64,000 nt of DNA, from IMG/VR virus record IMGVR_UViG_3300037067_003476, positions 32,001 through 96,000 of that record; one strand, 5' to 3'. Shown here in pieces: positions 1,922-64,000 of this stretch (position 1 is the first letter of the stretch; each line of letters opens with the position of its first letter). A model generated the notes under the pieces. That model was not told where the DNA came from. It ran no database searches and worked only from the letters and a program-made list of their open reading frames with translations. The position numbers and the translations under genes were made by a program. The stretch is from a virus (lineage: Duplodnaviria; Caudoviricetes).

Positions 1922-1926
1922 TCGTA

Positions 1927-3951: not shown

Positions 3952-3985
3952 GTGGGCTAGATTAATCTGGCCCACACCTTTATTT
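3952..3985 (+). terminator. hairpin / putative intrinsic terminator
   Basis: GTGGGCTAGAT-TA-ATCTGGCCCAC stem followed by T-rich tract, in an intergenic gap. Confidence 0.55.
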
Positions 3986-3998
3986 GTGCGGAGACAAT

Positions 3999-26982: not shown

Positions 26983-27409
26983 AGTTAACGATATATTTGA
27001 CATTGATGCAGACGCTTATGTTAACACAGTGAATTGTGTTGGTGTAATGGGAAAGGGCGTGGCCCTTGCCTTCAAAGCTAGGTATCCAGCGTTAATGACC
27101 CAATACAAAAGATACTGTCGCAATAATATGATCATGCCAGGAGAACTAATGATTTGGAGATCTCCGGATAAAAAGTGGGTTTTTAACGTTGCAACAAAAG
27201 ACCATTGGCGTAACCCATCAAGATATACATGGGTCAGACAGGGACTAAACGAGCTATATAAGTTTTTGGTAAACATGGATATTAAGACAATTGTTATTCC
27301 ACCGCTTGGTTGTGGTTGTGGTGGCCTTGACTGGAATGAAGTGTGGCCAATGATACACAGTTCTCTTAATGACCTGGATATGGAGGTACTTGTCATTGAG
27401 CCCAACTAA
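26966..27409 (+). CDS. macrodomain ADP-ribosylhydrolase (DarG/Poa1-like)
   Basis: NTVNCVGVMGKGVALAFK, NVATKDHW, PPLGCGCGGLDW. Confidence 0.9.
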   Translation: MVKLIRVNDIFDIDADAYVNTVNCVGVMGKGVALAFKARYPALMTQYKRYCRNNMIMPGELMIWRSPDKKWVFNVATKDHWRNPSRYTWVRQGLNELYKFLVNMDIKTIVIPPLGCGCGGLDWNEVWPMIHSSLNDLDMEVLVIEPN

Positions 27410-33594: not shown

Positions 33595-33601
33595 AGCAGA
33601 A

Positions 33602-40808: not shown

Positions 40809-41423
40809 TTACAGATACTCTAACTCAACATACAGACCGAATTGAGTCTTAGAACCAATTGAGTTCGGGCTTGCCGATATCGCCACGTACCAGTCATGCT
40901 GCGTAGCCTGTGTATCAGCGCCAGATGGTCTAGCGCCATCAACGCCTGGACTACTTACGAGATCCAGATACGAACCTGATCCATAGGCATTAACCCATGT
41001 CTCGTCTCCAGAACCAGCACAATCCCAGCCTTCCCATGGGTGAATTAGTTCACCAACATAACATGTCACGCCAGATGGATTGTTGTTTTTGCTTACACGA
41101 TCAAACACGCGCAGTTGCGCGTTTTGTGTTTTGACCGGGGTGTCGAATGTAAATCGTACATTCAAGGCACCAGATGCATTCTGTATACTGGTAAGTTCTG
41201 TGTCAAAAGTATCGTTCCATCTAACGCCAGAAGTTGTTGCCAACTTCTTAGTGTTGTTCGCTACTGGACCCTGAACTGAACCATCTGAGCTAGTGATATA
41301 CGTTGAATCTTGATACTGTCCGACCTGTACCGACGTACCAAAACTAGCCCCATAGAATCCCAATCCAGACCCAGCTAGCGACACCGCAGTTTGACCTGCA
41401 AAGAAATTAATCGCTGCTGCCAT
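40809..41423 (-). CDS. putative virion structural protein (paralog A)
   Basis: G/S/T-rich beta protein; strong SD AAGGAGGT; own promoter motif and terminator. Confidence 0.65.
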   Translation of the reverse strand: MAAAINFFAGQTAVSLAGSGLGFYGASFGTSVQVGQYQDSTYITSSDGSVQGPVANNTKKLATTSGVRWNDTFDTELTSIQNASGALNVRFTFDTPVKTQNAQLRVFDRVSKNNNPSGVTCYVGELIHPWEGWDCAGSGDETWVNAYGSGSYLDLVSSPGVDGARPSGADTQATQHDWYVAISASPNSIGSKTQFGLYVELEYL

Positions 41424-41443
41424 ATAAAGTTACCTCCTTTGTC

Positions 41444-41454
41444 TTTTTATACAC
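41444..41454 (-). promoter_or_regulatory. late-promoter-like motif GTGTATAAAAA
   Basis: Recurs upstream of four structural genes. Confidence 0.68.
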
Positions 41455-41459
41455 TAATA

Positions 41460-42101
41460 TCAAATATACTCTACTTCAACTGCTAATCCAAACAACTTAC
41501 TATTTGGTGTGTTTGGAGTACACGATATCGCAACATACCAGTCGTGTCTTGTATCAATAGTTAGGTCGCCGTTAGGGCGCAAACCAGATGTGCCGGGTGT
41601 GTCTATCAAACCAAGCGACTCAGATCCATGAACCCACGACCAAATTTCGTCACCAGTACCCGTATTATCTTGCGACGTAGACGTGTGTATAATCTCGCTA
41701 CAATAACACAGCAATCCAGATGGGTCATGAGACAGTACATTCCCGTCATAAATGTACATCGCCGCATTTTGTGTTCTTACCGCTTCAACATGTTCAAACC
41801 TGATATTGAGTGATGCCATATAATTAGGCAAATTTCTTAATGGAATTCCATCACCCACCTGTCCAAATATAACCCCTGATGTCCCGTTTATTCCGCTAAG
41901 CGAGCCCCCGACACCAATTGTCAACTTATTATTATTGCACTCTATCCCGTTGGTTAAGCCAGACGGATCAGTGATGAATGTTCTGCCCTGGAAAGATCCT
42001 ATGCCTACAGGAGATCCGAATCCAGAATCACCATAAAATCCTATGCCAGAACCAACAGCTAAGCTGGTTTGATTGTTTATCCATATACTTATATCAGCCA
42101 T
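41460..42101 (-). CDS. putative virion structural protein (paralog B)
   Basis: Clearly similar to 40809-41423 (GSG.GFYG, LN.RF...V.TQNA, HDWYVAIS..PN). Confidence 0.65.
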   Translation of the reverse strand: MADISIWINNQTSLAVGSGIGFYGDSGFGSPVGIGSFQGRTFITDPSGLTNGIECNNNKLTIGVGGSLSGINGTSGVIFGQVGDGIPLRNLPNYMASLNIRFEHVEAVRTQNAAMYIYDGNVLSHDPSGLLCYCSEIIHTSTSQDNTGTGDEIWSWVHGSESLGLIDTPGTSGLRPNGDLTIDTRHDWYVAISCTPNTPNSKLFGLAVEVEYI

Positions 42102-42112
42102 AATACCCTCTC

Positions 42113-42124
42113 TTTTTTATACAC
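42113..42124 (-). promoter_or_regulatory. late-promoter-like motif GTGTATAAAAAA
   Basis: Same motif, overlapping the upstream stop codon. Confidence 0.68.
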
Positions 42125-43476
42125 TATGGTGCCGGAGGAAGTTTGTTTACACTACTATACGTCAGATTCTCTGGAACACTAACATCAAATGTTTTGTGAT
42201 AAGAGTAAGATTGTGATCCAATTGCGTCAACATTCATATGTATCGTAAACCCACCACCCATTGGTCCACGATTAGCGTAAAACATATCGTATAATTGCAG
42301 TGCGTGTACGTAACTCGTTGTTGTAATTTCTTCTGTCGAGCCATAACTGTGTCCACCCTGGCATGTAATACTAAAGTTAGCTAATGACCATGCCGGTAAT
42401 ATAAGTGGGATATCGACCTGACTACCATACTGCCCATAAATAAAGTAATTTTGGGTTGTATATGATCCATCGACAAGGAAGATTGTAGCGACTATGTGGA
42501 GTGTAACATTGTCTCCAACATTAGAATCTGTCTGTGGGTCTACTGGTTCGGCTATACCATCACCAGCACTATATGAATCAGACCATATATTGAATTTGAT
42601 AGTGTATGTTTCTTGTGATCCAGTTGGGTTACCAACATTAAAACCAAAACTCATAAACCACACATCATTTCTGGAATGCGATATATGTGTCTCAAGATCT
42701 GGAGGAACCCAAAAGTCGATATGTGCGGAAATTGATGAATTCCCGTATGTATATGACGTAAATACCAGTTGATCATGAGAGGTCGATGACTGCCTTGTTC
42801 CGAGTGATTTTGTCGCCTCTAGAATGCCACTCACAGAATAAAACGTATATGACGACGAACCATCGCCATACCATTTTCCACCTGGAATCAACCCTTCCTT
42901 TGATAACAACGACGGGTATTGATACACCCCGTATAGTCTATACGGCCTATAATCAACTTCGTCTGAAATTTCAAAATGACGGTAGCAATACCTGTCCCTT
43001 TGATCAAACTCGCATAAACCATAGTATTCATTATGGAATATATCTGGTGACGGTGGGTATATCTGGATATCCCTCGTGATACCGCCAGAGTTATAGATAT
43101 TCATATGGGTATCATACAGGATATCGAACCATTTCCTACAATTTTGTATTCCTTCGTCGTAAATACCTATTCCGGCGCGACTCCATGCTATTTTTTCGAG
43201 ATCAGTGTTATTTCCATAGGCGTCAAAATCTGATCCATCTATTAGTCTAAGAGATAGTGGTAATAGGCTGACGCTATTGTAATCGACATACCTAATACCA
43301 AGTATATCCTGATAAGTATCGAATGGAACATTGTCATAAAATGCCCGCAACTTATTGTATCTTTGTAACAGCGCCATAAGAAAATATGGATTGCATATTA
43401 TGTTTTGTGTGTTCGAAGCCATTCCACTGTAAAATGTTGTGTAGTCTGGTCCAGTTAATTTCTCTGTCGTAATCAT
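42124..43476 (-). CDS. hypothetical tail/baseplate-associated protein
   Basis: Tyr/Ser-rich beta C-terminus; position in tail module. Confidence 0.55.
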   Translation of the reverse strand: MITTEKLTGPDYTTFYSGMASNTQNIICNPYFLMALLQRYNKLRAFYDNVPFDTYQDILGIRYVDYNSVSLLPLSLRLIDGSDFDAYGNNTDLEKIAWSRAGIGIYDEGIQNCRKWFDILYDTHMNIYNSGGITRDIQIYPPSPDIFHNEYYGLCEFDQRDRYCYRHFEISDEVDYRPYRLYGVYQYPSLLSKEGLIPGGKWYGDGSSSYTFYSVSGILEATKSLGTRQSSTSHDQLVFTSYTYGNSSISAHIDFWVPPDLETHISHSRNDVWFMSFGFNVGNPTGSQETYTIKFNIWSDSYSAGDGIAEPVDPQTDSNVGDNVTLHIVATIFLVDGSYTTQNYFIYGQYGSQVDIPLILPAWSLANFSITCQGGHSYGSTEEITTTSYVHALQLYDMFYANRGPMGGGFTIHMNVDAIGSQSYSYHKTFDVSVPENLTYSSVNKLPPAP

Positions 43477-46019
43477 GTTGGACTCTCGGTTGGATATACG
43501 AATATGTTCATTGCCTGATCAATATATGGTTTGAATGTATGATCTTCCTGTTCAACCCATTTTACTGAAACTGCTGTGCCAACAGGGATGTATCCAGGAC
43601 CAGAGTACGGTTCGCCAAGGTTTAGAACCGTATCAAGTAGATTCAATTCACTATCAGTAAACATTGACGTGTCACCCTCTATCACTGTCACTTCATAGTT
43701 GGGTGGTCCAGTCTTAGACGATGGTGGGTTTAATGATTTGGCAACAGTACATTTCAGTTCTGATGGTGATGGAATAGCCTCTTCGACAACCCACGCAGTA
43801 ACGGCAACGATATTGTTCGATGTATACCTATCAGGATACAATCCCCATTTAGCTGGTTTTATTCTCAAAAATATTCCAATAGGTAGATGCGCTGGTGCGT
43901 CTGGGTATTCGGATAAGTTAGTAACGGCAACATTGAATATCGCAGCAGGAACAAGCTGGACATACCCATTAACGAGGGTCTGTTTATGGATCTGACACAT
44001 ATACCATGGATGACTATCATCTCTACTAATTATCTTGGCCACAACAGAGCCGTCACCTCCAGCACTACGATTAACTCTATGTTCTGGAGGATCTTTAAAT
44101 ATGTCTTCTGGATACTCTGGATACTGTTGTCTGGCCTGATCTCTCTTTAGCTTATCGATTAATTCCTGATAGTATCTCTGATATCTACCAAGTTCGTTGG
44201 TATAAAGATTGCACTTATAAACAGTGGTTACGCCACGAATATCATACGATACGCTAATATTTGTGATATTGGTACCACGGCCAATCGCCATTCCAAGATT
44301 AACTGTTGGTAATCCAGGAACCTCTAGTTCACCAGTATCAAATTCAGTAATGCGATGTGTGTATGTGCGAATTCTAGCGTAAGCAATTTTATTCATAATG
44401 TCGATGGCGTCATCCATAGACATACCGCGATACGAATATGCCCATGGTGTCAAAGACGAGTCAAAAACGACCCTTGTTTTTCCCGGTAGCCTTAGTTGGG
44501 GTGGAATCAAAGCATCACTTGTCCATGGGCCATATGAATCACGACGGTAGATGATCGGTATATAAACCGAGCCAACCTGTGTCATCCTTGACACCTCGCC
44601 ATTTGTTTCCAGTGCCCCATAGCTTGTTCTGGTTCCAATCAAAACTTCTAGTGGAACCGGAAACGTGATGAGCAAAATGCTGCCACGTTTATTCAGCGGG
44701 GCACCCGGAACTTTGTATAGATCCACACGGTCAACCGATATCTTCATGTAGTATCTATTTTGGCCAGTCCCTAGTAAATCAGACGAATCGACAACTTGGT
44801 CCGCCCATTCACCTCCAACAGTACTTGGATTATTTAGTACAGCAAAAGCAACCCATCTTCCATCACTAACACCGAATTTTAATTGACCGTCTGTTGGTAA
44901 ACCTTCTGGTGAAGTATTGTTCTCCCACCACCCTTCATTAACAGTATCTATCCACGGAACATTGTCGCTATCAATCAATGACGCTGGTATGTCAATGTAG
45001 AAAGTTCTTCCCCAGTGATTTTCAGCATAAGATGTTAACGCCTTCAATTCTTCCTCTGGCAAATTAGTAATTCGACCATTAAGGGCATCCTTCATCTCAT
45101 TGATAGACGTAAACCTTGTTCTAACGATCCCTTCCCTAGACACTATCTTAAATCTAGGAGAAGTCAATACACCCCCCTCGTCGTCAAAGCCCCAAAATGG
45201 TTTGAGTAGACTGCCATTATACTTTGTAAGTGTTTGTTTATTAGCCCCAAGAACTATCGTTCTTGTAACCTCATCCCTATTTTCTACGCCAGTCACCAAT
45301 CGAATAACAGAATTTGGGTATTGACTAGCCAGTCCGTTCATGTCAAGAGAAGCTATTTTTCGCTGTAGTGTACGAACATAGACATCGTAAACAGACCCGT
45401 TTTTTATAGTATCCACATACCATTCGAATCCATGATCGTCTGCTACTTGATTAATAAACTCTATCAACGACATTGCTGAACCGCGAACCCTGTAGGGAAT
45501 ACGCTCGTTCAATCCGGTTGTGCTTTGTATCGTTCGCGATGTCGTTGTAATGTCGCTAAGATTAACGCGAAACGATATCTCTCCATATTTATAAATGACG
45601 CTTTCTATCCTATTTTTGATTGTAGAATATTTAACCCCACCTATCAAATCCTCGTTTGTCTCTGGCTGAACCAATACCACATTTTCCCCAAGACTAACTC
45701 CCGTAGGCGACTGGACAACTACCTGAACACAATCCATTGCAGGTCTCATATCTGTCATGCGAACGGAATACACACCACTTCCAGCCACATTGATGATCTG
45801 ATTGTCCCACATCTGTACCAAGCCGTAAAAATCCAAAGACCCTATCTGTATATGCTCGATATGTCTCATACCCTGTCGTGGCAATCCAGCAAGCGTAAAT
45901 GTATGTGATTCGTCCTCTACGACAGACATGTTGTATGTTGTAGGGTTTTGATTCCAGCCAAACTGGGCACCAAAACTTCTCAGATAACAACCAAATATAA
46001 CTTTCTGTTCAATTTCCAT
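43473..46019 (-). CDS. tail tip/hub protein with two C-terminal OB-like repeats
   Basis: Hub-like N-terminus (FGW..NPT...DHGFEWYV); position downstream of TMP; duplicated NL.E...P..(L/I)P.G motif. Confidence 0.55.
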   Translation of the reverse strand: MEIEQKVIFGCYLRSFGAQFGWNQNPTTYNMSVVEDESHTFTLAGLPRQGMRHIEHIQIGSLDFYGLVQMWDNQIINVAGSGVYSVRMTDMRPAMDCVQVVVQSPTGVSLGENVVLVQPETNEDLIGGVKYSTIKNRIESVIYKYGEISFRVNLSDITTTSRTIQSTTGLNERIPYRVRGSAMSLIEFINQVADDHGFEWYVDTIKNGSVYDVYVRTLQRKIASLDMNGLASQYPNSVIRLVTGVENRDEVTRTIVLGANKQTLTKYNGSLLKPFWGFDDEGGVLTSPRFKIVSREGIVRTRFTSINEMKDALNGRITNLPEEELKALTSYAENHWGRTFYIDIPASLIDSDNVPWIDTVNEGWWENNTSPEGLPTDGQLKFGVSDGRWVAFAVLNNPSTVGGEWADQVVDSSDLLGTGQNRYYMKISVDRVDLYKVPGAPLNKRGSILLITFPVPLEVLIGTRTSYGALETNGEVSRMTQVGSVYIPIIYRRDSYGPWTSDALIPPQLRLPGKTRVVFDSSLTPWAYSYRGMSMDDAIDIMNKIAYARIRTYTHRITEFDTGELEVPGLPTVNLGMAIGRGTNITNISVSYDIRGVTTVYKCNLYTNELGRYQRYYQELIDKLKRDQARQQYPEYPEDIFKDPPEHRVNRSAGGDGSVVAKIISRDDSHPWYMCQIHKQTLVNGYVQLVPAAIFNVAVTNLSEYPDAPAHLPIGIFLRIKPAKWGLYPDRYTSNNIVAVTAWVVEEAIPSPSELKCTVAKSLNPPSSKTGPPNYEVTVIEGDTSMFTDSELNLLDTVLNLGEPYSGPGYIPVGTAVSVKWVEQEDHTFKPYIDQAMNIFVYPTESPT

Positions 46020-47719
46020 TAGTAACCTTCCTTGATAAGGTATCTAATTGTCCTATCATATGTAAATGCAGTTGGGCTCCAATTTTCGCTATCCCCTATC
46101 ATGATGAAACCGCTTGACGGAATATTTAGGTACTCATCACACATTGTTCGCATGGTCGAGCTTGATGGTCTAGATGCATATCCCTTTCCTTTTATAGTAA
46201 CTGTTGTTATTTTTTCATTAACAGTATTCATATCCTGAATCACTGGGCCTAAAAGCCTTCCTGGTATCGGCAGGATAGCTGTTATCTGGGCACGATTTTG
46301 ATCTTGTATGCTTACCTCTAGCTGATTATCTGAAGACGTATCCCACGTCCACGACATCTTAATAGTTCCAGACTTTTCATTTACGGACGATACTTTGGTT
46401 CGTATTGTATTACTTACTACCGATGTGTCTGGTATCAGCGAATCCAATATCTCTATAGCTCTTGTTCTGGCAGCAACATCACTTGGTACAGCATCTCTAG
46501 CATTACTCAGTTTTTCCTCTGATGTATCACCAAGTCCACGGATATCTGCTGATAGAGTAATAACATACTGACTATTTTCTGAGGTATAGTTAACGCTAGC
46601 TTCGTAATAAATCAATACATCGGGATTCTCAGTACTATTCCATTCGTATGAAAACGATGCGGTGCCTTGCGACTGATTAAGACCCACAGACTTCACATAT
46701 GGAGATTCGCCTATCGTTGTTCCACCAAGTAATGTGCCAACAGCAGCAAGGGCCTCTGTTCTTGCGGTGGATTGTGATGGAACATAATCCCTGGCGATAT
46801 CCATAGCGGAGACATCTCCAGCCGCTTTGTTACTAGATACCCCATAAACGATCCCGTCATACCTGACACGATATTCATCGTTTTCCTGTGAATAGTCTAT
46901 ACTGAAGTTCTTCTCTATGTAATGATTACCAGAACCAAGCGTCCACGACTCTTTTGTGGAGTACGTTCCATCAAATGACCCTATACTAGATGTTTTAGTG
47001 TATGCGCCACCCGTCCATGTGTCTACGCCAAGAATACTGGTTAGAACGCCAGACGGAATAGATCCTATTGCTTTTGTGTCACACCACGCTTTTGCATGTT
47101 GCCATGCTTCTTCGCCGTCGTATTTGCTGCCCGTTTCGTCGTATCCTAGTATTCCACGCGCATTGACATCGTGTGTAATTCTAAACATCTGGCCTTCGCG
47201 ACCTTCCATATCCTCGAAAGACCACGCCTCGCCAGCAGATTCTATGAGATCAAAATTGAACGTGTCTTCGTGGCTTAGAGTTCCGTTGATATACATCCAA
47301 TCAGTTTGAAGCCTAATCGTGTAATCACATCTCTGTGTCCATATACCCTCTGTAAAGCTAATATCCAGTACTCGTGGATTGCACTTAACGACAGGCTGAC
47401 CAGATTGTGGCTGCCACTCTAGTGATTGTCCGTCATGAGAAAACAACCATCTGATAGCCTCTTGTTTACGTAGTATTGAATTAAAATCTTCGTTGTTTTC
47501 TGTATATAGTTCGTCGGGTGGATAATTAGACAATTCCCAAAACGCATTAGCTAGGTTTGCGTAATGGCCACTCGGAGACCCCTTGAATGGCAACAATGTC
47601 CCAGTGAGGGTAATGTCGTAATTAGCACCAATCTTACCACCGTCCTCGGTAGTTTGATAGGATTTGGTCATCGCCACCAATGGCGCTGGTATGATTGCCT
47701 TTCCGTTATATCGCAACAT
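46019..47719 (-). CDS. tail tip/distal tail protein with internal ~100-aa repeats
   Basis: Repeat Y..EN..Y......G.....ARD.VPS...ART.A...N...GT....(Y/W).W; tail module position. Confidence 0.55.
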   Translation of the reverse strand: MLRYNGKAIIPAPLVAMTKSYQTTEDGGKIGANYDITLTGTLLPFKGSPSGHYANLANAFWELSNYPPDELYTENNEDFNSILRKQEAIRWLFSHDGQSLEWQPQSGQPVVKCNPRVLDISFTEGIWTQRCDYTIRLQTDWMYINGTLSHEDTFNFDLIESAGEAWSFEDMEGREGQMFRITHDVNARGILGYDETGSKYDGEEAWQHAKAWCDTKAIGSIPSGVLTSILGVDTWTGGAYTKTSSIGSFDGTYSTKESWTLGSGNHYIEKNFSIDYSQENDEYRVRYDGIVYGVSSNKAAGDVSAMDIARDYVPSQSTARTEALAAVGTLLGGTTIGESPYVKSVGLNQSQGTASFSYEWNSTENPDVLIYYEASVNYTSENSQYVITLSADIRGLGDTSEEKLSNARDAVPSDVAARTRAIEILDSLIPDTSVVSNTIRTKVSSVNEKSGTIKMSWTWDTSSDNQLEVSIQDQNRAQITAILPIPGRLLGPVIQDMNTVNEKITTVTIKGKGYASRPSSSTMRTMCDEYLNIPSSGFIMIGDSENWSPTAFTYDRTIRYLIKEGY

Positions 47720-47731
47720 AACTATTCTCCG

Positions 47732-51892: not shown

Positions 51893-51904
51893 ATCATCCT
51901 CGTG

Positions 51905-54900: not shown

Positions 54901-57796
54901 CAGCCTTTCCAAGAGTAATTAATTGTCCAGGAAGAGTTGGTGGTACCAAGACCATAGATAGATTGCGCGCTGCTGTTCTAGCAGCCTCGTCAAGTCGCGA
55001 TTGACGTATGGCAGCAGCCTGTTTATCAATAGCCTCTTTGATTGCAGACCATCCACCAGCCCTTTGCAAAATCGTGTTGGTAATTTCGGTAGATAAATCC
55101 GCCGAAAATCTCATACCTCGTTGCTGTAGAAATTCTTGTACAGTACTTTGTAGGTTGCCATAGAAATCAGACCCGCTTTTTTGAACGGCAGACTCCATTA
55201 TGGTATGTAGCAAATTAAGATTCTGTCCGAAAATATCAGAAACCATTTTAGAAGCATCAATGCTTACCGCACTCGGATCAAATGCTTCTCCAATTTTTCT
55301 AATGTCAAAAGACAATATACCAGAAACCAGCGTATTTAATCTTCTACCTACTTCGGCAACGCCGCCAGCAAAACCTGAATAATATTCGACTGATTGCTTA
55401 ATGGTATTCAGGGTTGAGTCTACCAATGTTTTAAGTGCGGCATCGGTATCGGCTATGTTAGATGGATCTGGAACCTGAATCGCCTTGATTTTCGCAGCAA
55501 CCTCATCCATCTTTTCTGTTATAGCAGTCTCTACTTGGTTCGCTCTTGTAGTAGCAGCCAGACCAATTAATGCTACCGCAGCACCGGCTGGACCAGCGAA
55601 TCTGCCGATACCAGTCCCTCTCGCGCCAGGCGCAAATCCCCGAAGAGTTTGTCCAACGCTTTGACCACGCAAGATAGATAATAGACCAACAAGCATTGTG
55701 GTTGACTTAATCATTCTTCCTGTGAATTCGGCGGTAGACTTTGCCGCACCATCCAATTGATTTGAATAATTGTCAACCGCATCACCAAGAACAGACACAA
55801 CACCAAGCCCAACCAACTGTGCCGCTGGACTTTGATAAAGTGGTACGGCAGTTGGTAGCTGTCCCTCTGGTAATCCCATGCGCCTACTAGCAGCGGTTAA
55901 TCCTTGTGTTCTGCCAGACGCAAATTGTTGTCCCACTAAACCCAATAGGCCAACGCCCTGGACTCCACTTATCCCGCCAGCAGTACTTACTCGTCCAGCT
56001 AAACTCGCTAGTAGACCAACCCCCTTAACAGCAGCAGTTGCTGCACCAATAGCCAATAGTGTTTTTAGCAACGGGGATAGTACTCCCGTCAACTTAGTTG
56101 CTGCATTACCAGCACTAATCATAAATTGGATAAATGGGGTAAAGATCTCCGGAGCCAATGTTTGAACAAGTTCGTTCATCTTGGCTTTCATAACGTCTAT
56201 CTGCTTAGATAAAGCACTCATCCCCTTGGCAACGTCGTTCTGTACCGATCCAGCAGAAGACAGCGAAACGCCAAGTGCTTCATTAACAAGATTGAAGTTA
56301 TCTAATATGGCTATGACTCTGCCTATTTGTCTCAAGCCGCCGAGACTTTCTGCTATATCTCGTCGTCTCAGTTCATCTGCGCCTGCGAAGACTTTAGATG
56401 TTTGCTCTAATATTCTATACAATGACAGAACCTTACCGCTAGCATCTTCTGTTTGAACCCCAATGCTACGTAGAAATTCTAGCGTAGCTGGACGGGTAAT
56501 TCTTGCAGATATTGTTCTAAGTCCGGTACCAATTGTTTCTGCGCTTTCTTGTGTTGTTTGTTTTGCTGCGGTTATGATAGCCAAGAATTCGTCGATATTA
56601 CCACCAAGAGCAGACCATGCACCTCCACCACGCTTAATAGCCTCTATAAGATCTCCTGACGTTACCGCATATCTTTTAGCTACTTCGTTAACCTTATCGA
56701 ACACTGTTGGTATGTCTTCCGCCTCTAACTTAAACTGACCCATAATGGCGATAAGACCTTCTGTGGCCTGATCGATCCCTTCAAGAGACGGAAGCAATGG
56801 TACTTTGGAAATCATTTCTAGCGCGGCGCGCAATCTATCGCCCTCAAATCCAGCTTGCGCAAGAGTTACAGCAGCCTTGCCTAGCTCATTGGCACTGGTA
56901 CCAGTTGCGACACTTAGATCTAATATCTCGTTTCGAAGACTGACCAATTCCATTCGTGTTGGCTGAAGGGTTTGGTCTAACTTAACCATCGTTAGATCAA
57001 AATCAATTACATTTTTAGTGGCCTCTCGTATTCCGGCCAATGCCACAAATGGTATGGTGGTAGCAGCTAAAAATGCCCCGTATCTTTTTCCGGCTAGAAA
57101 TATAGAATCACCAAAATCCTTAGCAGCCATAGTGGACTTGGCCATATTGCCAGTTACAGCCGTAGCTGTTGTGGAACTAGATGCGCCAATTTTGTCGATT
57201 GTTAGCGCAGCCTGTTCCGTAGCTGCTTTTAGTTTTTCAATATTCGGTATTGTATCTGGCGAAACCACGGATGGTATGTATGGCTTAGTAGTCATGGACG
57301 GTATCTTGGGCATAGTGGTTTGCTGTGCCGCTTGTACTATTAGTGGGCCAGCCTGAGCAATAGCATCCTTTGTTGATTTCGCAGCGCTGGATATTTGTTG
57401 AATTTGGGCATTAATGTTCGCCTGAGTTGCACCAGCACCAACCACTGGAGAGACCACACCCTTGGTTGCTGCTATTGTTGGGGATATGCCTATGCCTTGT
57501 GCCTGTTTTAACTTGCCTATTAGCACATCAACAGAATTCGCAGCCTTTAGTACAGATCCCTCAACCGATACCCCAACCGATTGTGCTGCCGTTGCAAGTC
57601 CTTGCATTTGTTTGATGGCGACAGCTATTCCGGCATTAAACTTAGTGATTGACTGTAGAGCGACGGGGTTTAATCCCTTGAAACCAGACAATTTACCAAG
57701 ATCTACTCCCTTAGTAATACCAGCAAGTTGTTGCTTAATGTCAGCACCAACTATAATTGACGATATTCGTAAGCTGGAATCAAGTACGAATCCCAT
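51905..57796 (-). CDS. tape measure protein
   Basis: 1963 aa, Ala/Gly-rich and helical; TP901-type core (LAQAG, V.EVAK.YAVTS.DL.EA..R.G, ESAETIGTGLRTISARI). Confidence 0.92.
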   Translation of the reverse strand: MGFVLDSSLRISSIIVGADIKQQLAGITKGVDLGKLSGFKGLNPVALQSITKFNAGIAVAIKQMQGLATAAQSVGVSVEGSVLKAANSVDVLIGKLKQAQGIGISPTIAATKGVVSPVVGAGATQANINAQIQQISSAAKSTKDAIAQAGPLIVQAAQQTTMPKIPSMTTKPYIPSVVSPDTIPNIEKLKAATEQAALTIDKIGASSSTTATAVTGNMAKSTMAAKDFGDSIFLAGKRYGAFLAATTIPFVALAGIREATKNVIDFDLTMVKLDQTLQPTRMELVSLRNEILDLSVATGTSANELGKAAVTLAQAGFEGDRLRAALEMISKVPLLPSLEGIDQATEGLIAIMGQFKLEAEDIPTVFDKVNEVAKRYAVTSGDLIEAIKRGGGAWSALGGNIDEFLAIITAAKQTTQESAETIGTGLRTISARITRPATLEFLRSIGVQTEDASGKVLSLYRILEQTSKVFAGADELRRRDIAESLGGLRQIGRVIAILDNFNLVNEALGVSLSSAGSVQNDVAKGMSALSKQIDVMKAKMNELVQTLAPEIFTPFIQFMISAGNAATKLTGVLSPLLKTLLAIGAATAAVKGVGLLASLAGRVSTAGGISGVQGVGLLGLVGQQFASGRTQGLTAASRRMGLPEGQLPTAVPLYQSPAAQLVGLGVVSVLGDAVDNYSNQLDGAAKSTAEFTGRMIKSTTMLVGLLSILRGQSVGQTLRGFAPGARGTGIGRFAGPAGAAVALIGLAATTRANQVETAITEKMDEVAAKIKAIQVPDPSNIADTDAALKTLVDSTLNTIKQSVEYYSGFAGGVAEVGRRLNTLVSGILSFDIRKIGEAFDPSAVSIDASKMVSDIFGQNLNLLHTIMESAVQKSGSDFYGNLQSTVQEFLQQRGMRFSADLSTEITNTILQRAGGWSAIKEAIDKQAAAIRQSRLDEAARTAARNLSMVLVPPTLPGQLITLGKAVDEVAKSITASVNAFDAVTGSIEGISAPKLPQQLEKQATIELLGAGRLAGLETAKPDLANYVKTTNDIVEITKKFVESISSLQAQATTAGKLEPGKFLPPLEEDQIDETIQRFIESQEIPDKLKGRVSMLLRDIGIAMLEGIELSGAGINTDKMNELIKKHIGIIMPTQDDIVNITQQELNARLLVSQRRGEFEARQLQREVGIGNTPETQFEITMEMLRRAGIRTPARETGTPTDLLRSTNLVPSLQEAMTNITREMASQLNAIYRAAETGVTIDDTGMEKSFIAMVQDLENTRSRFLALQAAIESLKRSLSSYDQFEQERITKQEEAVNLQTKLGAQIEGMRKTEMVLVGRRSAAGTQEERAVLDEQLRLMRETRGQIEQPYSIAKEIAGGPLEVNKEASRRLTDSLIESQKRLQEIYQRQINVEPTAIDKTQFAGISESMQSAITGFNETITEIFRLESKQRSELTKEQIQLLERQLGQIGIEQERIIAEETGLNDPFGANKFSKAVDKFESAVIQMGLKETPIGQTPLFTGTKANLETMTPGQLTSFERALFGGLSVQELESRANQLLSQQKIRVEEPGKAVYGIGYYGGAITGPGKNLSTLQEIRESQSQKTRTEGIAAIADVLAKERAAISPGTEEEIKSRILSILAAGEGAKLDEFQVTPAVTELFDVLEKGRTVNAETTNSINELGRSATMATTAIADLATASRPVDIATTQPSTGFVPVTAPSVGPATYKPTALIDTTRQQIVAQELFNPNKFVEELQSGKTGGGIIMPAPGYGGRTVTIGESGDIAVQNIVQSTNTISDTFSRLKESLGGLFNLSPVNDPAAGFSRTEINGQQQTQQVSQLSDLVSRIDAVIASIGTANTENAQIIKEAIDKLVAIEIPGIGDNTSASRDNTATLQEISGQQQALTETLADTSKTIQEGIGLKVESLQQVNVNVNGLTEAIQNELRPAIEDAAKNAAKQIIYRTLRDLANASDMEGARIFGVAAQQLA

Positions 57797-57802
57797 TTGA
57801 TA

Positions 57803-58669
57803 TTACCCCTTATTCCGACCCCTCTTCTTGGGTTTCGTTATGCTATCGCCGATTAGCTCTCCGGTTTCGTCGTCTATAAATGGTTTGACATCAATAACCA
57901 ATTCACCATTTACATCAACCTTGTTACCATCAACATCAACAAAATTGCCATCCTTATCGATATATCTACCATTCTCGTCAACGCGACGACCAGATCGATC
58001 TACAAAACTGCCACTTCTATCCGTTAGTCTTCCGCTTTGATCCATGAATCCATACTTCTTCATCCATTGAATTTCTGGAAGTGTGTCGGCGAACCCGTCA
58101 TCGTATCCATACATAATTTTCGCCAAAGTTGTTGCTACAAGTATAGCAACAGGTTCATCGCTCCTACTCAAATAATCGTCAACATCCATAAAATATGGAT
58201 TACCATTATCTGCCCTAATAGCACATTTGGTAATAAGCCAATTGAATCGATAGTTCTCGGCAACAGATTCCATCGTCGCACTATCAAACTGCGATCTCTT
58301 GGCATGAAGTTGCATCAATTCGTTTCGAAGATCTCCAATATGTAATGCGAAACTGCGAGCCTCTGAAAGTTTAATGCCACCCTGTTTTAACGCACACTCG
58401 CATGCTCGTATCTCGATTTGTAGCTCATTGAATCGAACCGCGTCATCTCTTGTCCACACACCCATGTTTTCAAGATGTTTGTCCAGTTCACTTCTTAACA
58501 GAAGCCTTTCATTTTTGTTTACGCCACTCCTCATAAGCTGGGCCAGTCGAAGACTGTACTGAAGTTGTGCTTCTTGCATCAACTTATGCCCAGGTTTGAC
58601 AACAACCAAGTCAACATCTTTCTCCAAGAGATCCTTGCCTGTAACATCAATTTGCTTATCCATCCTCAT
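57803..58669 (-). CDS. tail assembly chaperone-like protein (paralog 2) with D-x-x-G repeats
   Basis: Directly upstream of TMP; similar to 58979-60055. Confidence 0.62.
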   Translation of the reverse strand: MRMDKQIDVTGKDLLEKDVDLVVVKPGHKLMQEAQLQYSLRLAQLMRSGVNKNERLLLRSELDKHLENMGVWTRDDAVRFNELQIEIRACECALKQGGIKLSEARSFALHIGDLRNELMQLHAKRSQFDSATMESVAENYRFNWLITKCAIRADNGNPYFMDVDDYLSRSDEPVAILVATTLAKIMYGYDDGFADTLPEIQWMKKYGFMDQSGRLTDRSGSFVDRSGRRVDENGRYIDKDGNFVDVDGNKVDVNGELVIDVKPFIDDETGELIGDSITKPKKRGRNKG

Positions 58670-58982
58670 TCTCTCCTATTGGTTTCAGTGACATCCTATA
58701 TCCTACGAACTCAACGGTGTGTAGGTCTATTTCCGCATTCAATGCCCTTACCTGTTTATTGCCATTATTCAAAACGCTTAACCGAAGTTGTTCCCATCTT
58801 TCTCTGTTGATTTTCTGTCGTGCTGTAATTTCATCTTCTGGCAAACCCATTCCCCACAATTCCAATCCGAATACCTGTTCAAACTCAGCTATTGGAAAAA
58901 TAAAGCTAGTGGTTATTTTCTTTGACGCTATCTGTTTTAGTCTGCCTCTTGATCGGCTATTGATCTGGTCTTTTCGATTCAT
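58656..58982 (-). CDS. hypothetical protein (tail module)
   Basis: Coupled ORF; FE..FG.ELWG, LNNGN.Q.R. Confidence 0.6.
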   Translation of the reverse strand: MNRKDQINSRSRGRLKQIASKKITTSFIFPIAEFEQVFGLELWGMGLPEDEITARQKINRERWEQLRLSVLNNGNKQVRALNAEIDLHTVEFVGYRMSLKPIGENEDG

Positions 58983-60055
58983 CTCCGAATCCTTTCTCGG
59001 GACTTCGCCATAGCCAACTCCCTCATTTCTGCCTGACTATTTGGGAGATGCGCGTCGCTAATTTCATGCGACCCACTAATTATTTCCTGGTTTCTCTTAA
59101 TTGTCCTCCTGGCCACAGGAGTATTCATGTCATAAACCCTACTGGCACTATTGCGATCTGTAACCACAAATACTTCCTGTCTCCCACTCTGTGTATTGCT
59201 TATGTTTAATATTCCCTCAGATTCTTTTTGTTTTGTACTGGAATCAGATTTTTCATTTTGTCGAATAATCCACGAGTCTAGCAGGTCGTCGTCGTTGACA
59301 ACCAGACTGCTGGGTCTATCGTATGAATCAAATACCATGTCGTATAGATGAGACCATCGAACCAACTCGGCTTGGTTATAACCCCATTCGATTGGATTGC
59401 CGTTAAAGATACGGCTAACTATTTTACCAGCATTCCACATAAATCTCCATGGATCTGTTCTTGCAATTTCTCTCAACACACGTTCAGAATATCGTGATGT
59501 AAGAAAGAAAATCGTAACAAGTTGCTTGATAATCGCATGTTCATTTGAAGTATCAATATCATCAAAAAACTTACTACCATCAACCATATGGGCTACACAC
59601 CCTATTAGATATCTTTGTTGCGCCATTGCCGAATACGACTCTATTGTGTCGTTAAGCAACGATGACCGTTGTTCGATCTTGTCAACCAACGCCTTTTCTG
59701 CCCGCCTAATTGCGCTCCTGGTTTTTTCAAGACGATCTGTGTTAAACAGGAAGTCTAACAACCCACGCTTCATTGTATAGATGTCTTTTTTCAACCCGGC
59801 TATCTGTGCGTCAAATTCGCTAGACCACGCACCAGTATTTGTATACAATGCCATTGCCTCTTCCTCTGACATAAGACCATTTGTTCGGGCGAATACATAT
59901 GCTTCGTTATATACAATTGTGGCCATAGCCAGATCTTCCGATGTTGCAGGACGCAAAATAATGGTGACGCGCGACCCGTCATTAAGGGTAGAGTTCACAG
60001 ATATTTTGCCCCATGATATCAATGCGATTAATCTTTCCCGCTCTGCGCGATCCAT
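58979..60055 (-). CDS. tail assembly chaperone-like protein (paralog 1)
   Basis: Between tube gene and TMP; helical; LREIARTDPWR..W, DDDLLDSW. Confidence 0.62.
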   Translation of the reverse strand: MDRAERERLIALISWGKISVNSTLNDGSRVTIILRPATSEDLAMATIVYNEAYVFARTNGLMSEEEAMALYTNTGAWSSEFDAQIAGLKKDIYTMKRGLLDFLFNTDRLEKTRSAIRRAEKALVDKIEQRSSLLNDTIESYSAMAQQRYLIGCVAHMVDGSKFFDDIDTSNEHAIIKQLVTIFFLTSRYSERVLREIARTDPWRFMWNAGKIVSRIFNGNPIEWGYNQAELVRWSHLYDMVFDSYDRPSSLVVNDDDLLDSWIIRQNEKSDSSTKQKESEGILNISNTQSGRQEVFVVTDRNSASRVYDMNTPVARRTIKRNQEIISGSHEISDAHLPNSQAEMRELAMAKSRERIRR

Positions 60056-60110
60056 CGTTCCTATCCCTTAAACCAACTAGACAAGTGCTGTCCAAGGTTA
60101 CTTTCCTAAC

Positions 60111-60122
60111 TATTTATACACC
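60111..60122 (-). promoter_or_regulatory. late-promoter-like motif GGTGTATAAATA
   Basis: Same motif; contains TATAAATA. Confidence 0.68.
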
Positions 60123-60154
60123 AAAAAAAGACCGGCCACTCATTGACCGGTCTT
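60123..60154 (-). terminator. intrinsic terminator after tail tube gene
   Basis: AGACCGGTCA-ATGAG-TGGCCGGTCT followed by T-run. Confidence 0.85.
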
Positions 60155-60181
60155 CGTTGGTTCGCTGTCGTTTATTGTATA

Positions 60182-61231
60182 TTATTGATTTGCAGGATCT
60201 TCTGGGTGCGTTACATCTAGTTTGTTGAATGTTGAGAAATTGTATGTAGTAACCACGTTACCACCGCCAGCATCGCCACCGCTATATGTGGTGGACGCAA
60301 GCTTGTTCTTACCACCAAGATCGATAACAGTACCCTCTCTCATACGAACCAAAATGGTCTCGTTAGAAAGATTGGTTCCACCGACTGGATCTGCCAGCGC
60401 ATCTACGTTATCCCCTTCACTAGCGGTTACGTCGATTGCGCATGTCACTTCTACCGGGAATGTTACATATCGGTAGTACGGACCACGCTTTCCAAGCTCG
60501 AACAACTGATCTCTGCCAAGATTCGCGGTGATGGTGACTGTTTGGATATGTGCCGCATACCCGTCGCCAGAAATGGGATTTGTACCAGACGAAGTAATGC
60601 CTGGAATATTTGTTGGCCATATGGATGAATCATCTGCCTCGCCCATCAAAACGTCTTCGCGTCTTTGAACACCACCAGATGATACGATAGAGAATGGCTG
60701 GTCTGTACCGTCGAAATTGGGGTCAAAGGTAATATAACCAGATACGCCCTTCCATACTTTGTCGTTGCCGACAAGAGTAACGTCTTCTGTACAATTACCA
60801 TCGACATTGAGGGTATAGGTTAGCGCGGACAAGTACATCCCAGACATGCCAACCGAATTGATAGGAGTTCCCGATGCATTGTCGTTAGTGTCTGGATAGA
60901 TATTAAGCGCAACGAAGCATCTGTTGTTCGATCTCCCAACCAATGTGGGGGATGTAGCCTGTTGCGTGGCAAGGTGATATAGCAGTGGATACCCGTCAAG
61001 AACCTTTTGCATCGTTACCTGAATATCAGGAATACCCTCGATATTCTCGTAAAGCTCTAGTTGTCCAAGTTCAAAAACCTGTTCCAGGTTGAAAGTTGTG
61101 GTTATGTTGATATTCTGGACACCGTGTGCTGCTATAAAACCGGAAGGTGATCCTGCGTCATCTGGATCTGCAACGCCATGCGGCGCAAACCCTGGTGCAT
61201 GACAGGCGTAAAAGATACGATTATTTGTCAT
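60182..61231 (-). CDS. major tail tube protein
   Basis: Duplicated EQ(V/L)FELG motif; position between terminator gene and chaperones/TMP; strong SD, own promoter and terminator. Confidence 0.72.
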   Translation of the reverse strand: MTNNRIFYACHAPGFAPHGVADPDDAGSPSGFIAAHGVQNINITTTFNLEQVFELGQLELYENIEGIPDIQVTMQKVLDGYPLLYHLATQQATSPTLVGRSNNRCFVALNIYPDTNDNASGTPINSVGMSGMYLSALTYTLNVDGNCTEDVTLVGNDKVWKGVSGYITFDPNFDGTDQPFSIVSSGGVQRREDVLMGEADDSSIWPTNIPGITSSGTNPISGDGYAAHIQTVTITANLGRDQLFELGKRGPYYRYVTFPVEVTCAIDVTASEGDNVDALADPVGGTNLSNETILVRMREGTVIDLGGKNKLASTTYSGGDAGGGNVVTTYNFSTFNKLDVTHPEDPANQ

Positions 61232-61267
61232 TTCTAGTCTCTCCTATATTTGCGTACTATCTCTCTA

Positions 61268-61278
61268 TTTTTATACAC
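61268..61278 (-). promoter_or_regulatory. late-promoter-like motif GTGTATAAAAA
   Basis: Same motif upstream of tube gene. Confidence 0.68.
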
Positions 61279-62202
61279 TTATATACCTGGGCAATCTACT
61301 TCAATTTCCCACGTTACGCGACCACGGAATATATTAGGATTCAGCGAATCAATACGCTGGACCTTTCCGTTCATTATGCGCATCTTTTTCCAGGGCTTGC
61401 TATTCGCCATGTCAACCCAATTTGTGGCCCCAGAAACCGGGCTACCCCACTCGTCTAAGGGGTACGACATTGAGTTTAGATCAGCCATGATAAATGCCGA
61501 TCTGCTTTGGTAATCCAACCAATCCATAAGAAGATTTCTGTCAGCTTTATTATCGGCGAATACTTGTAATACTACAGTTCTACTTTTAATCTGACCACCA
61601 CCAAGAGCCAGTCCTTTTTGTGTGCCCCGGTTAACATCTATAAATATCGCTGGTAACCACACTTGCCTATCCCTATCTGGGATACCAGATGGTTCTATGC
61701 GAGACGCAAAATCAACGACGCTGTTTTGTAATAACTGGCTGTAATCGGGATGATCGGTGGATGACACAAATACCGATCTATGACAATATTCGGCTCGTAT
61801 ATCAGCGTCTGGGTCCATAGGGGTATCAAAGACAATTCTACCATGGCTATAATCTACATGATACGAGTACGGTAATTGTGAATCCGTATCGTAAAAGTTG
61901 TTGTTGATATATATACCAGAAACCCGAAACGGAGAGCCACTAATCGAGACTCCCTCTTCCCATACCCATTCGTTTCCAAATCCATTCCAAACGCGACCTT
62001 CTTCGTATCTTTGATCTAAAACAGGAAGTAGTCGAGATTCTGTGTCATTAAATGTTGAGTAAGAATCGTAGTTAATTTGAGAAAATGCGCCGTGGTGTAG
62101 TAGACCCCAATCTAGCCATAGCTTGATATTTGTGGTTAGTTGATCGGTTAATTCGTATCCCCCGAATCCGCCACTATTGATTCCCTTGAATGTTAGAGAC
62201 AT
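61279..62202 (-). CDS. tail terminator/completion-like protein
   Basis: LPAIFID...G..LGGG....R.V.LQVFA....DRN.L.D; position before tube gene. Confidence 0.6.
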   Translation of the reverse strand: MSLTFKGINSGGFGGYELTDQLTTNIKLWLDWGLLHHGAFSQINYDSYSTFNDTESRLLPVLDQRYEEGRVWNGFGNEWVWEEGVSISGSPFRVSGIYINNNFYDTDSQLPYSYHVDYSHGRIVFDTPMDPDADIRAEYCHRSVFVSSTDHPDYSQLLQNSVVDFASRIEPSGIPDRDRQVWLPAIFIDVNRGTQKGLALGGGQIKSRTVVLQVFADNKADRNLLMDWLDYQSRSAFIMADLNSMSYPLDEWGSPVSGATNWVDMANSKPWKKMRIMNGKVQRIDSLNPNIFRGRVTWEIEVDCPGI

Positions 62203-62203
62203 T

Positions 62204-62932
62204 TCACACCGTTCCTATTTGGGCCAACACGATTTTAACAACATCAATTGCCACACTACTCTGGCCGATAGTATATTCAATGAAATTCGCACCAGAAATT
62301 GGTCGAGCTACATCTGGAACAACATAGCCACCTTCTCGGAATGGTGCTCCGGCTACCTGAAGAAATTCTGTACTAGCCATAATCGCTCGTCCGCTGCGAG
62401 ACCAAGACAGTAGGCTATCAAATCCGTGTCCCTTAGTGAATATGTCATATACCAGTGTTCTGCCCATCTCCATGTCATAGGCCACCTGCCCTATATCTAT
62501 ATCCGGATCAATTAGCATCCATCTTAATACGGGTATTATTTGATTCGATGGCTGGGATATATAAGACGCATTTGGTAATCCAAGATAGTCCTCCCAATAG
62601 TTGCTAGTACCATGTATCGATATCACAACATTAGACTTGCCAGGAATAATGGTAACAGATTTTTTTATCATGTCTAGCAAACCACCAACCAGCGTCGATG
62701 CCGCACCATCGCTTAGCCCAAATTCGGCCTGTAGATCAGTAGACCCAATTCCGAGCAATGATTTGATTACATCAGTTTCTCTGAGTATTTTGGATAAATG
62801 ATCACCGATAGCTCGTTGTATTATCGTCTTGCGACCATTGACTTTATTTCGAATTGCGACCATGACATCTGGCATAGCTTTTTCAAGCTGTGTCTTCAGG
62901 GGTGGTTTGATAATCAATTCAATACTAGCCAT
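62204..62932 (-). CDS. neck/tail-completion-like protein
   Basis: Position; SRSGRAIM, NFIEY motifs. Confidence 0.5.
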   Translation of the reverse strand: MASIELIIKPPLKTQLEKAMPDVMVAIRNKVNGRKTIIQRAIGDHLSKILRETDVIKSLLGIGSTDLQAEFGLSDGAASTLVGGLLDMIKKSVTIIPGKSNVVISIHGTSNYWEDYLGLPNASYISQPSNQIIPVLRWMLIDPDIDIGQVAYDMEMGRTLVYDIFTKGHGFDSLLSWSRSGRAIMASTEFLQVAGAPFREGGYVVPDVARPISGANFIEYTIGQSSVAIDVVKIVLAQIGTV

Positions 62933-64000
62933 TATCTACCAACTCCCAGAATGTTATACAATACCTATCTTCTCTTAAACCGACCGGAATTGGCCCTCTC
63001 AACCTCCTAACTCTTAGCGTCAGCATGTCACTAATAGCAACGTTCATAAGCGCTGTTTTTGCCTTAACGATCAGAGGTGCTTCTGTCAAAAAACTTTTTG
63101 TTCTAACTATCGCGGACGGATCGTGTACTGCGACACCATATTTACGATAATCTTTGGGATTCCATTTCACCAGTGCCTTAATACATCTGGTTACGGAATC
63201 TGTAATCAAACCAGCACCTTTACAGTGAGGGCACTTGTGCCCTCTGGCAAATGGCGTTGGTCCGCCAGTCTTGTATATCCCCGTCGATCTATTATTAAGA
63301 GAGTCGTATGTGCAATTTGGACACGCACTCCTTGTTGGCTCAAATTCCAAGTACATGTTTTTGCCAAGTTGATTGATAAGTGCGTCGATTCTTCCCTGAT
63401 ATATAGAGATCAATTCGTCGCTAATTTGAATTGCAGCATATGGATCTAAAATTGGACACTCACTACTTGGTAATTCCTCAAAACCAAATATAACTAGGCC
63501 AATATCACCGGAAACCCCTGCTGATCCAGACAAGTAAAGGTCTATGCCAGACGAACAAGGATCTCCACCGTTCAAATCAAAGTATCCGTATCGCGTTCTT
63601 GACGAAGCAGACAATGAGCCATCACCAGCAACAAATTCGAAGTATAGTAATTCTTCTGGTTTTTCTATTTCGAACTGCCTGAAAAGGATAAATTCCGATC
63701 CGTTGTGTAGGTATGCGTTAATGGTATCGCCGATACGATCAAATTTGACCCTGAATCCATAATTATCACCTGCCTGATTATTTTGCCAGTTGAAAATTTC
63801 GTTTAGATCAAATATATAGTGTGTGTATCCATTGAAATATGAGAACCTTGAAGCAGGAATACCAAGCCATAATTTGTGGCTCTTTCCATATTGACCAGGA
63901 TCGTCAATCCACTGATTAGCAGAACCGGCATGGTAGCATCCAAGCCACGCCCTCGCCAATTCGCCATTATACGTCGACGGAGTATACCACGATCTATCCC
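62925..64000 (-). CDS. head-closure/neck-like protein with N-terminal accessory domain (5'-truncated)
   Basis: Frame stays open past 63959 to the window edge; C-terminal CPNC..CPHC and PIPVGL....Y...FW. Confidence 0.55.
   Translation of the reverse strand, partial: DRSWYTPSTYNGELARAWLGCYHAGSANQWIDDPGQYGKSHKLWLGIPASRFSYFNGYTHYIFDLNEIFNWQNNQAGDNYGFRVKFDRIGDTINAYLHNGSEFILFRQFEIEKPEELLYFEFVAGDGSLSASSRTRYGYFDLNGGDPCSSGIDLYLSGSAGVSGDIGLVIFGFEELPSSECPILDPYAAIQISDELISIYQGRIDALINQLGKNMYLEFEPTRSACPNCTYDSLNNRSTGIYKTGGPTPFARGHKCPHCKGAGLITDSVTRCIKALVKWNPKDYRKYGVAVHDPSAIVRTKSFLTEAPLIVKAKTALMNVAISDMLTLRVRRLRGPIPVGLREDRYCITFWELVDNG

Follow-up and report, generated by a model that had tools for sequence, protein, structure and literature searches.

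We analyzed a 64,000-nucleotide stretch of DNA (hereafter the window) that spans bases 32001–96000 of the 143,155-bp IMG/VR record IMGVR_UViG_3300037067_003476, which is 86% complete and derives from an uncultured phage of the Caudoviricetes. Several tail and neck proteins of this phage, among them a 1386-amino-acid (aa) protein encoded directly downstream of the tape measure gene (47732..51892, minus strand) and the 349-aa major tail tube protein (60182..61231, minus strand), contain far more Ser-Gly (SG) dipeptides than their composition predicts. We read this excess, with moderate confidence, as a genuine, selected, amino-acid-level structural signature of a narrow family of modular, fiber-type tail and neck proteins. 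The statistics, folds, family restriction, sequence context, and glycosyltransferase (GT) inventory are direct results, and we infer from them that the motif is structural rather than an acceptor site. An earlier, sequence-only reading had proposed that SG marks a sequon at which the phage's own GTs attach glycans to its tail and neck. The observation behind that proposal is confirmed and is stronger than first described; the sequon itself is unproven and, in our judgment, improbable.

Size and specificity of the Ser-Gly excess

Expected SG counts were computed from within-protein shuffles. The 1386-aa protein contains 50 SG versus 17.0 expected (z 8.9) and 23 GS, and the tube contains eight SG versus ~2.4–2.5 expected (z 4.0) and a single GS. 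Two paralogs sharing 42% identity, encoded at the distal end of the tail module, carry seven SG each: the 204-aa protein (40809..41423, minus strand) against 2.6 expected, with six GS, and the 213-aa protein (41460..42101, minus strand) against 3.1, with five GS; the former is rich in both dipeptides and has no family match. A 2556-aa protein, encoded between the head and neck genes just beyond the window (genome 97129–104799, window-equivalent 65129–72799, minus strand), has 78 SG versus 31.6 expected, spread evenly along its length. SG is the top-ranked over-represented dipeptide in all five proteins in a full dipeptide table. The ribonucleotide reductase (RNR) has five SG versus 3.5 expected, DnaB three versus 2.7, and the remaining proteome has a genome-wide observed/expected ratio (O/E) of ~1.15. 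The approximate hand counts of the sequence-only reading (about 50, 8, 7, and 7, set against low values in RNR and DnaB) proved accurate, and SG lies far above both composition and GS in the 1386-aa protein and the tube.

The excess is specific in residue and in order. GS O/E ranges from 0.4 to 1.9 in the enriched proteins (1.07 and 1.34 in the 1386-aa and 2556-aa giants), and NG and DG lie near 1. TG is depleted, to 0.29–0.82 in the two giants and to 0–0.45 in the tube and paralogs, where counts are small; in the giants and in both paralogs, SS and GG also fall below 1. With NG and DG near 1 and TG, SS, and GG depleted, the excess cannot be put down to X-Gly turns in general or to loops rich in Ser and Gly, and both explanations were ruled out. 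NxS/T sequons are not enriched.

There is next to no chance that the excess is an artifact of composition, of local Ser/Gly-rich loops, or of internal duplication. The 1386-aa protein is indeed fourfold repetitive and, since every repeat position retains one Ser codon family of its own, the copies cannot be counted as independent. However, each of the repeats taken alone contains 9–10 SG versus ~3.3 expected (P ≤ 0.002), and the non-repeated C-terminus contains 12 versus 3.6, also a significant excess. Together with the shuffles, the dipeptide table (SS and GG depleted, GS ~1.2), and the persistence of the excess over 150 family representatives no more than 50% identical, these counts led us to reject the artifact. 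Both AGY and TCN codons serve as the Ser codon of SG, which excludes a DNA-motif origin and argues for selection on amino acids. As a separate codon-level observation, TCG encodes none of the 50 Ser-in-SG of the 1386-aa gene but 27 of its 118 other Ser, a strong codon-pair bias before GGN.

Only some proteins show the excess; contrary to what had been proposed, exposed virion proteins do not share it as a class. The two capsid candidates have one SG versus 1.5 expected and none versus 2.0, and the portal and TerL are also at or below expectation. Three large distal tail proteins of 450, 848, and 566 aa (42124..47719, minus strand), none with a family match, are likewise not enriched (3 versus 3.8, 2 versus 4.6, and 6 versus 4.8). 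The 1963-aa tape measure protein (51905..57796, minus strand; PF10145, E 1.8e-28) had been credited with about 11 SG; the exact count is 12, and it is low as claimed, being at expectation (12.2).

Architecture of the SG-rich proteins

The 1386-aa protein consists of four ~275-aa ConA/LamG-like modules (residues 3–276, 277–554, 555–833, and 834–1107 by repeat alignment and hidden Markov model), joined by DLF-type linker repeats, and a 276-aa C-terminal repeat region. SG recurs at the same five or six columns of the four repeats; the fixed positions noted from the sequence alone are present in the repeat alignment as PFTSG, GSG, W[TS]SG, ASGD, NGSGW, and SSG..DLF. We generated AlphaFold2 (AF2) models of the tube and of one repeat unit, and placed SG sites from their secondary-structure strings. 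The repeat unit is predicted to be a ConA/LamG-like jelly roll with a core pLDDT (the AF2 per-residue confidence score) of 70–90. It gives 321 Foldseek matches at E ≤ 0.001, including pentraxins, CBM66, carbohydrate-binding modules (CBMs) of GH43 enzymes, and CBM2 of the phage J-1 evolved Dit, and its Atlas neighbors carry PF13385 (Laminin_G_3). The 1386-aa protein matches no Pfam family at E ≤ 0.01 and no PHROG. Given these Foldseek matches, the LamG label first assigned from sequence alone holds for the modeled unit, whose membership in the ConA/LamG superfamily is at fold level only. The modules are probably carbohydrate-binding adhesion modules. Homologs of these ConA-like modules are also present in the 2556-aa protein, which has at least two.

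A single protein has as many as 19 copies of the linker repeat, SG-[SND]-[IL]-[DPN]-L-[FY]-[IV]-x-G, and the proteins that carry it (including P0125, P0127, and P0215) reach 3835 aa. A monomer of the repeat yields no confident AF2 structure, and the repeat would fit an inter-subunit element of a fiber shaft. An exhaustive profile search of 1.84 billion representatives recovered 243 relatives of the lectin-module family, many of which match the linker only. The 1386-aa type is therefore a very narrow, previously unannotated family of modular lectin-bead fibers with a distinctive linker repeat and compositional signature. Only a near-identical twin came up when one repeat unit was used in a word-based search for homologs and when IMG/VR was scanned with a pattern built on the repeat alignment.

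The tube is of the T5/P74-26 type with a duplicated tube domain, as judged from its AF2 model (pLDDT 71.5) and Foldseek matches to the tubes of T5 (pb6), DT57C, and P74-26 (E 2.5e-7 to 3e-5). Its gene is followed by three small genes and then the tape measure gene, which fits T5-type placement. The tube thus resembles pb6 and the P74-26 tube in fold and gene position; it differs from pb6 in lacking the C-terminal Ig-like domain and in its SG O/E of 3.3, versus 1.17 for pb6. The tube family has more than 4600 homologs, many on 140–180-kb contigs, and the tube has 278 relatives in IMG/VR. One 67%-identical homolog, with upstream virion-like genes, lies in NCBI CP070695.1 (37968–59083), a 4.94-Mb record labeled as a Candidatus Heimdallarchaeota metagenome-assembled genome. 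Cellular genes start there ~1 kb past the tube homolog and no tape measure is present; this locus is either a chimera of the assembly or a fragment of a degenerate provirus.

The excess across the family, relatives, and model phages

We assembled 150 family representatives, no pair of which exceeds 50% identity (135,142 aa). Their pooled O/E is 2.47 for SG (median 2.5, 5th percentile 1.57), 1.18 for GS, 0.78 for TG, and 0.92 for NG, and the linker motif supplies 13% of the SGs. Virion proteins from phages without known virion glycosylation served as controls: lambda J (1.86), lambda H (1.95), T4 gp34 (1.70), T4 gp37 (0.74), T5 pb1 (0.98), and T5 pb6 (1.17). Pooled, they contain 133 SG versus 108 expected, an O/E of 1.23. 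Phages without the GTs described below had been suggested as a place where equal enrichment might be found; these controls reach half the family value, so the enrichment is not equal. Nevertheless, lambda J, lambda H, and T4 gp34 attain 1.7–1.95 with TG depleted and no known glycosylation, which supports the structural reading, and half of the SG effect size can arise without glycosylation.

Among ten relatives of the phage, most large tail proteins have an SG O/E of 0.4–1.4. Of the 12 SG-rich tail proteins found there, ten are mosaic relatives of each other that have the ConA-like module or the C-terminal region in common with the 1386-aa protein; of the remaining two, one bears tail-fiber-type repeats that contain SG. 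The tube O/E, 3.3 here, is 1.9–2.3 across the clade. The [AV]SG tripeptide is not decisive as a sharper marker: its values are 1.6 for the controls, 2.5 for near relatives, and 1.8 for distant ones. SG load drops from this phage to its near and then its distant relatives, whereas GT1 and GT2 counts are constant; the co-occurrence of SG enrichment and GT genes that a sequon suggests is thus not seen, as SG load does not follow GT load. The diverged members of the lectin-module family sit on 1–11-kb contigs, which are too short for scoring GT content.

Sequence context and conservation of SG sites

The enriched motif is [A/V/P/T]-S-G, with ASG 6.4-fold and VSG 5.1-fold over expectation. Aliphatic residues occupy positions −5 and −3 and both positions after Gly, small residues or Pro occupy −1, and Lys/Arg are at 0.16–0.30 on both sides (about 0.1–0.3). 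Other x-Gly sites of the same proteins show none of this flanking pattern. Both AF2 models place SG in hairpin loops or at the ends of strands. Acidic residues are scarcer than expected near SG, with an O/E of 0.37 at −1 and, past Gly, of 0.80 and 0.59 at the next two positions. Xylosylated Ser-Gly sites of animal proteoglycans need flanking acidic residues. The proteoglycan analogy drawn in the sequence-only reading therefore fails, since the SG flanks are hydrophobic and poor in acidic residues; only the dipeptide is shared.

Site conservation suggests what is being kept. At tube sites 215, 317, 120, and 164, Gly is retained and N, G, T, D, or A can replace Ser; SG is found at site 120 in 58 of 81 homologs, and at site 215 the pair is SG or NG. 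In an ortholog pair of 34% identity, Gly-in-SG is conserved at 63% of sites and Ser-in-SG at 37%; T, D, G, A, or Q stands in for the lost Ser. Gly is likewise constant, with a variable partner, at module columns 43, 68, and 38. By these comparisons, Gly, not Ser, is the long-term anchor of SG sites. The one invariant tube SG (site 130, 81 of 81) is predicted to lie inside an 18-residue strand.

The fiber proteins are chains of ConA/LamG-like lectin modules and short linker repeats in which [A/V/P/T]-S-G sits at the junction between one hydrophobic β-strand and the next. On the structural reading, this placement fits a tight turn or bulge in which Gly acts as the conformational anchor with a small hydroxyl residue in front. 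Module duplication and shuffling would have spread the SG pattern, and the tube contributes a further three or four SG turns that are conserved. The GTs and sugar-nucleotide enzymes would be a separate, clade-wide feature, for which a protein acceptor is plausible.

Several observations weigh against the structural reading. SG O/E is 2.59 inside the ConA-like module and 2.44 outside it (112,465 aa); because the excess is equally strong outside the module, no single fold explains it. The classic turn dipeptides NG, DG, KG, EG, and PG are not enriched. The family O/E is twice the pooled lambda/T4/T5 value, and the T5 tube, which shares the fold of the SG-rich tube, reaches only 1.17. Ser-in-SG is more conserved than other Ser, both in the 34%-identical pair (37% versus 23%, P 0.018) and at 85% identity (98% versus 85%, P 0.014). 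At five module columns, 128 of 140 x-Gly pairs are SG, and Ser and Gly vary as a unit, alternating with KN, KD, RD, or AD. In some relatives, variable surface loops of the tube lengthen through SG-bearing insertions.

These same observations, with an excess that is Ser-specific, directional, and motif-like, are what would speak for the alternative in which [A/V/P/T]-S-G at strand-turn-strand junctions is a Ser O-glycosylation tag on fiber, neck, and tube proteins, read in the cytoplasm by soluble phage GTs. We consider such a tag unlikely. Gly outlasts Ser over long distances, with D, G, A, or N freely taking the place of Ser; the invariant site 130 lies within a long strand; and the capsid candidates and several exposed tail proteins are unenriched. 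The site-conservation facts are mixed: they fit a Gly-anchored structural turn, and several would also fit a recognized tag.

Glycosyltransferases and sugar genes

Pfam supports ~7 GTs in the genome, six of them in the window, if an intein-interrupted gene is included as a putative GT; several GTs are thus present as first reported, although not the ~10 proposed. The GT cluster (30200..36233, plus strand) lies on the replication strand and converges on the tail module. It consists of the intein-interrupted putative GT gene (30200–32401), two GT1-family genes (32401–33594 and 33602–34573), a GT2 gene (34543–35415), and a GT2/GT7C-like gene (35412–36233). The cluster GTs contain no strong hydrophobic segment and are therefore probably soluble. 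A nucleotide-sugar module (3984..8465, plus strand) encodes an SDR dehydratase/epimerase, an RmlD-like reductase, a UDP-GlcNAc 2-epimerase, a 320-aa open reading frame (ORF), and a GT2-type protein (7710–8465). The first three genes (3984–6818) are in FnlA/B/C-like order, which suggests that they make a UDP-2-acetamido-2,6-dideoxy-L-hexose such as L-FucNAc.

A further unit on the virion-gene strand (genome 113400–118700) comprises a sigma-70-like gene, a 305-aa ORF, a GT with one hydrophobic segment, a LAGLIDADG endonuclease, gmd, an ERCC4-like protein, and TerL; the GT (Glyco_trans_1_2 in Pfam) adjoins gmd. TerL itself carries an intein (Intein_splicing and PT-HINT matches; L002:15024-17549, minus strand). 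The sugar-synthesis enzymes anticipated from the sequence are thus present, and the methyltransferase listed beside them is reduced to a marginal match (E 0.19). GT1-family genes occur in 27 of 28 relatives, including 16 of 16 complete ones, down to 44% tube identity. The GTs and the two nucleotide-sugar pathways are core to the clade, and a presence/absence test of GTs within it is uninformative for that reason.

The GT and sugar genes may instead act on something other than virion proteins, either in remodeling host surface polysaccharide or lipopolysaccharide during infection or in glycosylating phage DNA, with SG unrelated to them. This is a minority possibility, albeit one with several points in its favor. 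Genes of the single-stranded-DNA-binding (SSB) type flank the main GT cluster on the replication-gene strand, pathways of the FnlABC-like and gmd kind typically serve O-antigen and capsule synthesis, and a T4-type deoxynucleoside monophosphate kinase is present. In review text, the best-known roles of phage GTs are to glucosylate DNA and to convert serotypes (PMC12619734).

Against a DNA acceptor, searches of this phage, its complete twin, and two further complete relatives found no ThyA-type hydroxymethylase (PF00303) or C5-methylase (PF00145), with working controls, and no TET/JBP (PF12851), for which the control also gave no match anywhere; these searches covered three routes, and other routes to DNA modification may exist. 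Against a lipid-carrier route, the priming transferases PF02397 (Bac_transf) and PF00953 (Glycos_transf_4) are absent from five genomes (this phage and four relatives), in searches whose controls worked, but host enzymes could supply the missing lipid-carrier or other steps. The presence of GTs in every complete genome would also be unusual for accessory host-modifying genes.

A soluble acceptor, such as a protein, is plausible by elimination, since no DNA-hydroxymethylation route and no lipid-carrier priming enzyme were found, an argument weakened by the TET/JBP search lacking a positive control. This elimination, the soluble core GTs, and the GT and gmd genes that adjoin TerL and virion genes in the same direction are the genomic points in favor of a glycan tag. 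In its full form, the proposal holds that phage-made GDP- and UDP-6-deoxy sugars would build a glycan coat in a TibC/AAH-like manner, in a widespread clade of uncultured 140–180-kb siphophages and by a system unrelated to the BAHT, Maf, and mycobacteriophage ones. We hold this extended version to be doubtful. The excess is Ser-specific and directional and soluble GTs are core, but none of the tests run here links any GT to any SG, so that an enzyme-substrate connection of any kind is missing, and Gly is more conserved than Ser.

Comparison with known systems

Among phage tail adhesins built from ConA-like or CBM modules, a close parallel is the evolved Dit of Lactobacillus phage J-1 (PDB 5ly8), a Foldseek match in which ConA-like jelly-roll modules likewise belong to a tail protein encoded right after the tape measure. 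The 1386-aa protein differs in having four tandem modules, with more in the 2556-aa neck-side protein, a DLF-type linker, no Pfam or PHROG match, a 243-member family, and a 2.5-fold SG excess; the likeness seen is that of the module.

Two systems offer precedents for a tag. Mycobacteriophage virions are O-glycosylated by phage-encoded GTs (Che8; Freeman et al. 2023, via PMC12619734 and PMC13445384), and the glycans are described on C-terminal tails of capsid and tube subunits (as cited in PMC12619734). That system resembles the present one in having phage-encoded GTs (Pfam GT1, GT2, and GT7C here) in a siphovirus and in the tube as a proposed target. However, the tube and both capsid candidates here have ordinary C-termini without a Ser/Thr-rich extension, so the mycobacteriophage type of acceptor is absent; the capsid is not SG-enriched, and this phage is known from sequence alone.

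TibC modifies Ser, not Thr, in the β-helix of TibA, including Ser-313 in the context QN-S-GGAVI (PMC4358343). TibC and AAH, acting on TibA and AIDA-I, thus perform cytoplasmic, Ser-not-Thr O-glycosylation of repetitive β-adhesins, with one mapped S-G followed by a hydrophobic strand (PMC4358343). The SG context here, with TG depleted and hydrophobic flanks, is compatible by sequence pattern with a TibC-type Ser acceptor in a strand-loop-strand element. The differences are that neither a GT9/BAHT homolog (PF01075, positive controls matched) nor a Maf-type transferase (PF01973) occurs in the same five genomes, that no ADP-heptose pathway was seen, and that the candidate substrates are lectin-module fibers rather than β-helix passengers. 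By analogy, TibC/AAH would be the best mechanistic parallel for a tag; its enzyme family is absent here, and no known family of protein O-GTs was recognized.

Genome layout and neighboring genes

Replication and sugar genes on the plus strand (1–40.5 kb) converge on a minus-strand tail module (40.8–64 kb). Pfam recognizes RNR, DnaB, a split PolIII alpha, RecA, a uracil-DNA glycosylase, and the tape measure, which is the only protein it recognizes in the tail module; Pfam and PHROG scans of ten tail proteins gave no match. In megablast and tblastn searches of cultured phages, neither the tube nor the tail module had a relative, the portal had remote matches only, and a GT matched only metagenomic fragments, so there is no cultured model phage. 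A bacterial host is argued for by the bacterial type of the phage's PolIII alpha, DnaB, RecA, sigma-70, and ClpP proteins.

Three genes between the tube and the tape measure (57803..60055, minus strand; 288, 108, and 358 aa) occupy the place usual for tail-assembly chaperones, an assignment by position only, and have SG counts of four versus 1.2 expected, none, and two versus 1.4. Beyond the tube, genes for 307-aa and 242-aa proteins and a 419-aa gene running past the window end (61279..64000, minus strand) are candidate neck or head-tail connector genes, also by position only, with SG counts of five versus 2.3, two versus 2.0, and seven versus 3.5.

PolIII alpha is split into a piece with PHP and NTPase domains (24673–26982, plus strand) and a piece with finger, HhH, and OB domains (27961–29700, plus strand), separated by a small ORF and the uracil-DNA glycosylase gene (window 24673–29700). 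A tyrosine integrase, a ClpP-family protease, and a sigma-70 region-4 protein adjoin one another at window 396–2415 (plus strand) in a phage that is large and otherwise looks lytic. The near-identical twin genome carries terminal repeats.

Implications

If SG were a glycosylation tag, a simple sequence rule would predict sugar-coated phage surface proteins, and virion glycosylation would exist in a second kind beside the mycobacteriophage case. The coat would matter for recognition of the host, for evading host defenses or grazers, and for particle stability in a large and abundant uncultured aquatic clade. The clade's core GTs, which have no obvious DNA or lipid-carrier acceptor route, in any case make their target a clear experimental question. 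Under the likelier structural reading, the value of the finding is more modest: it would define a narrow lectin-bead fiber family with a linker repeat and a strong SG signature.

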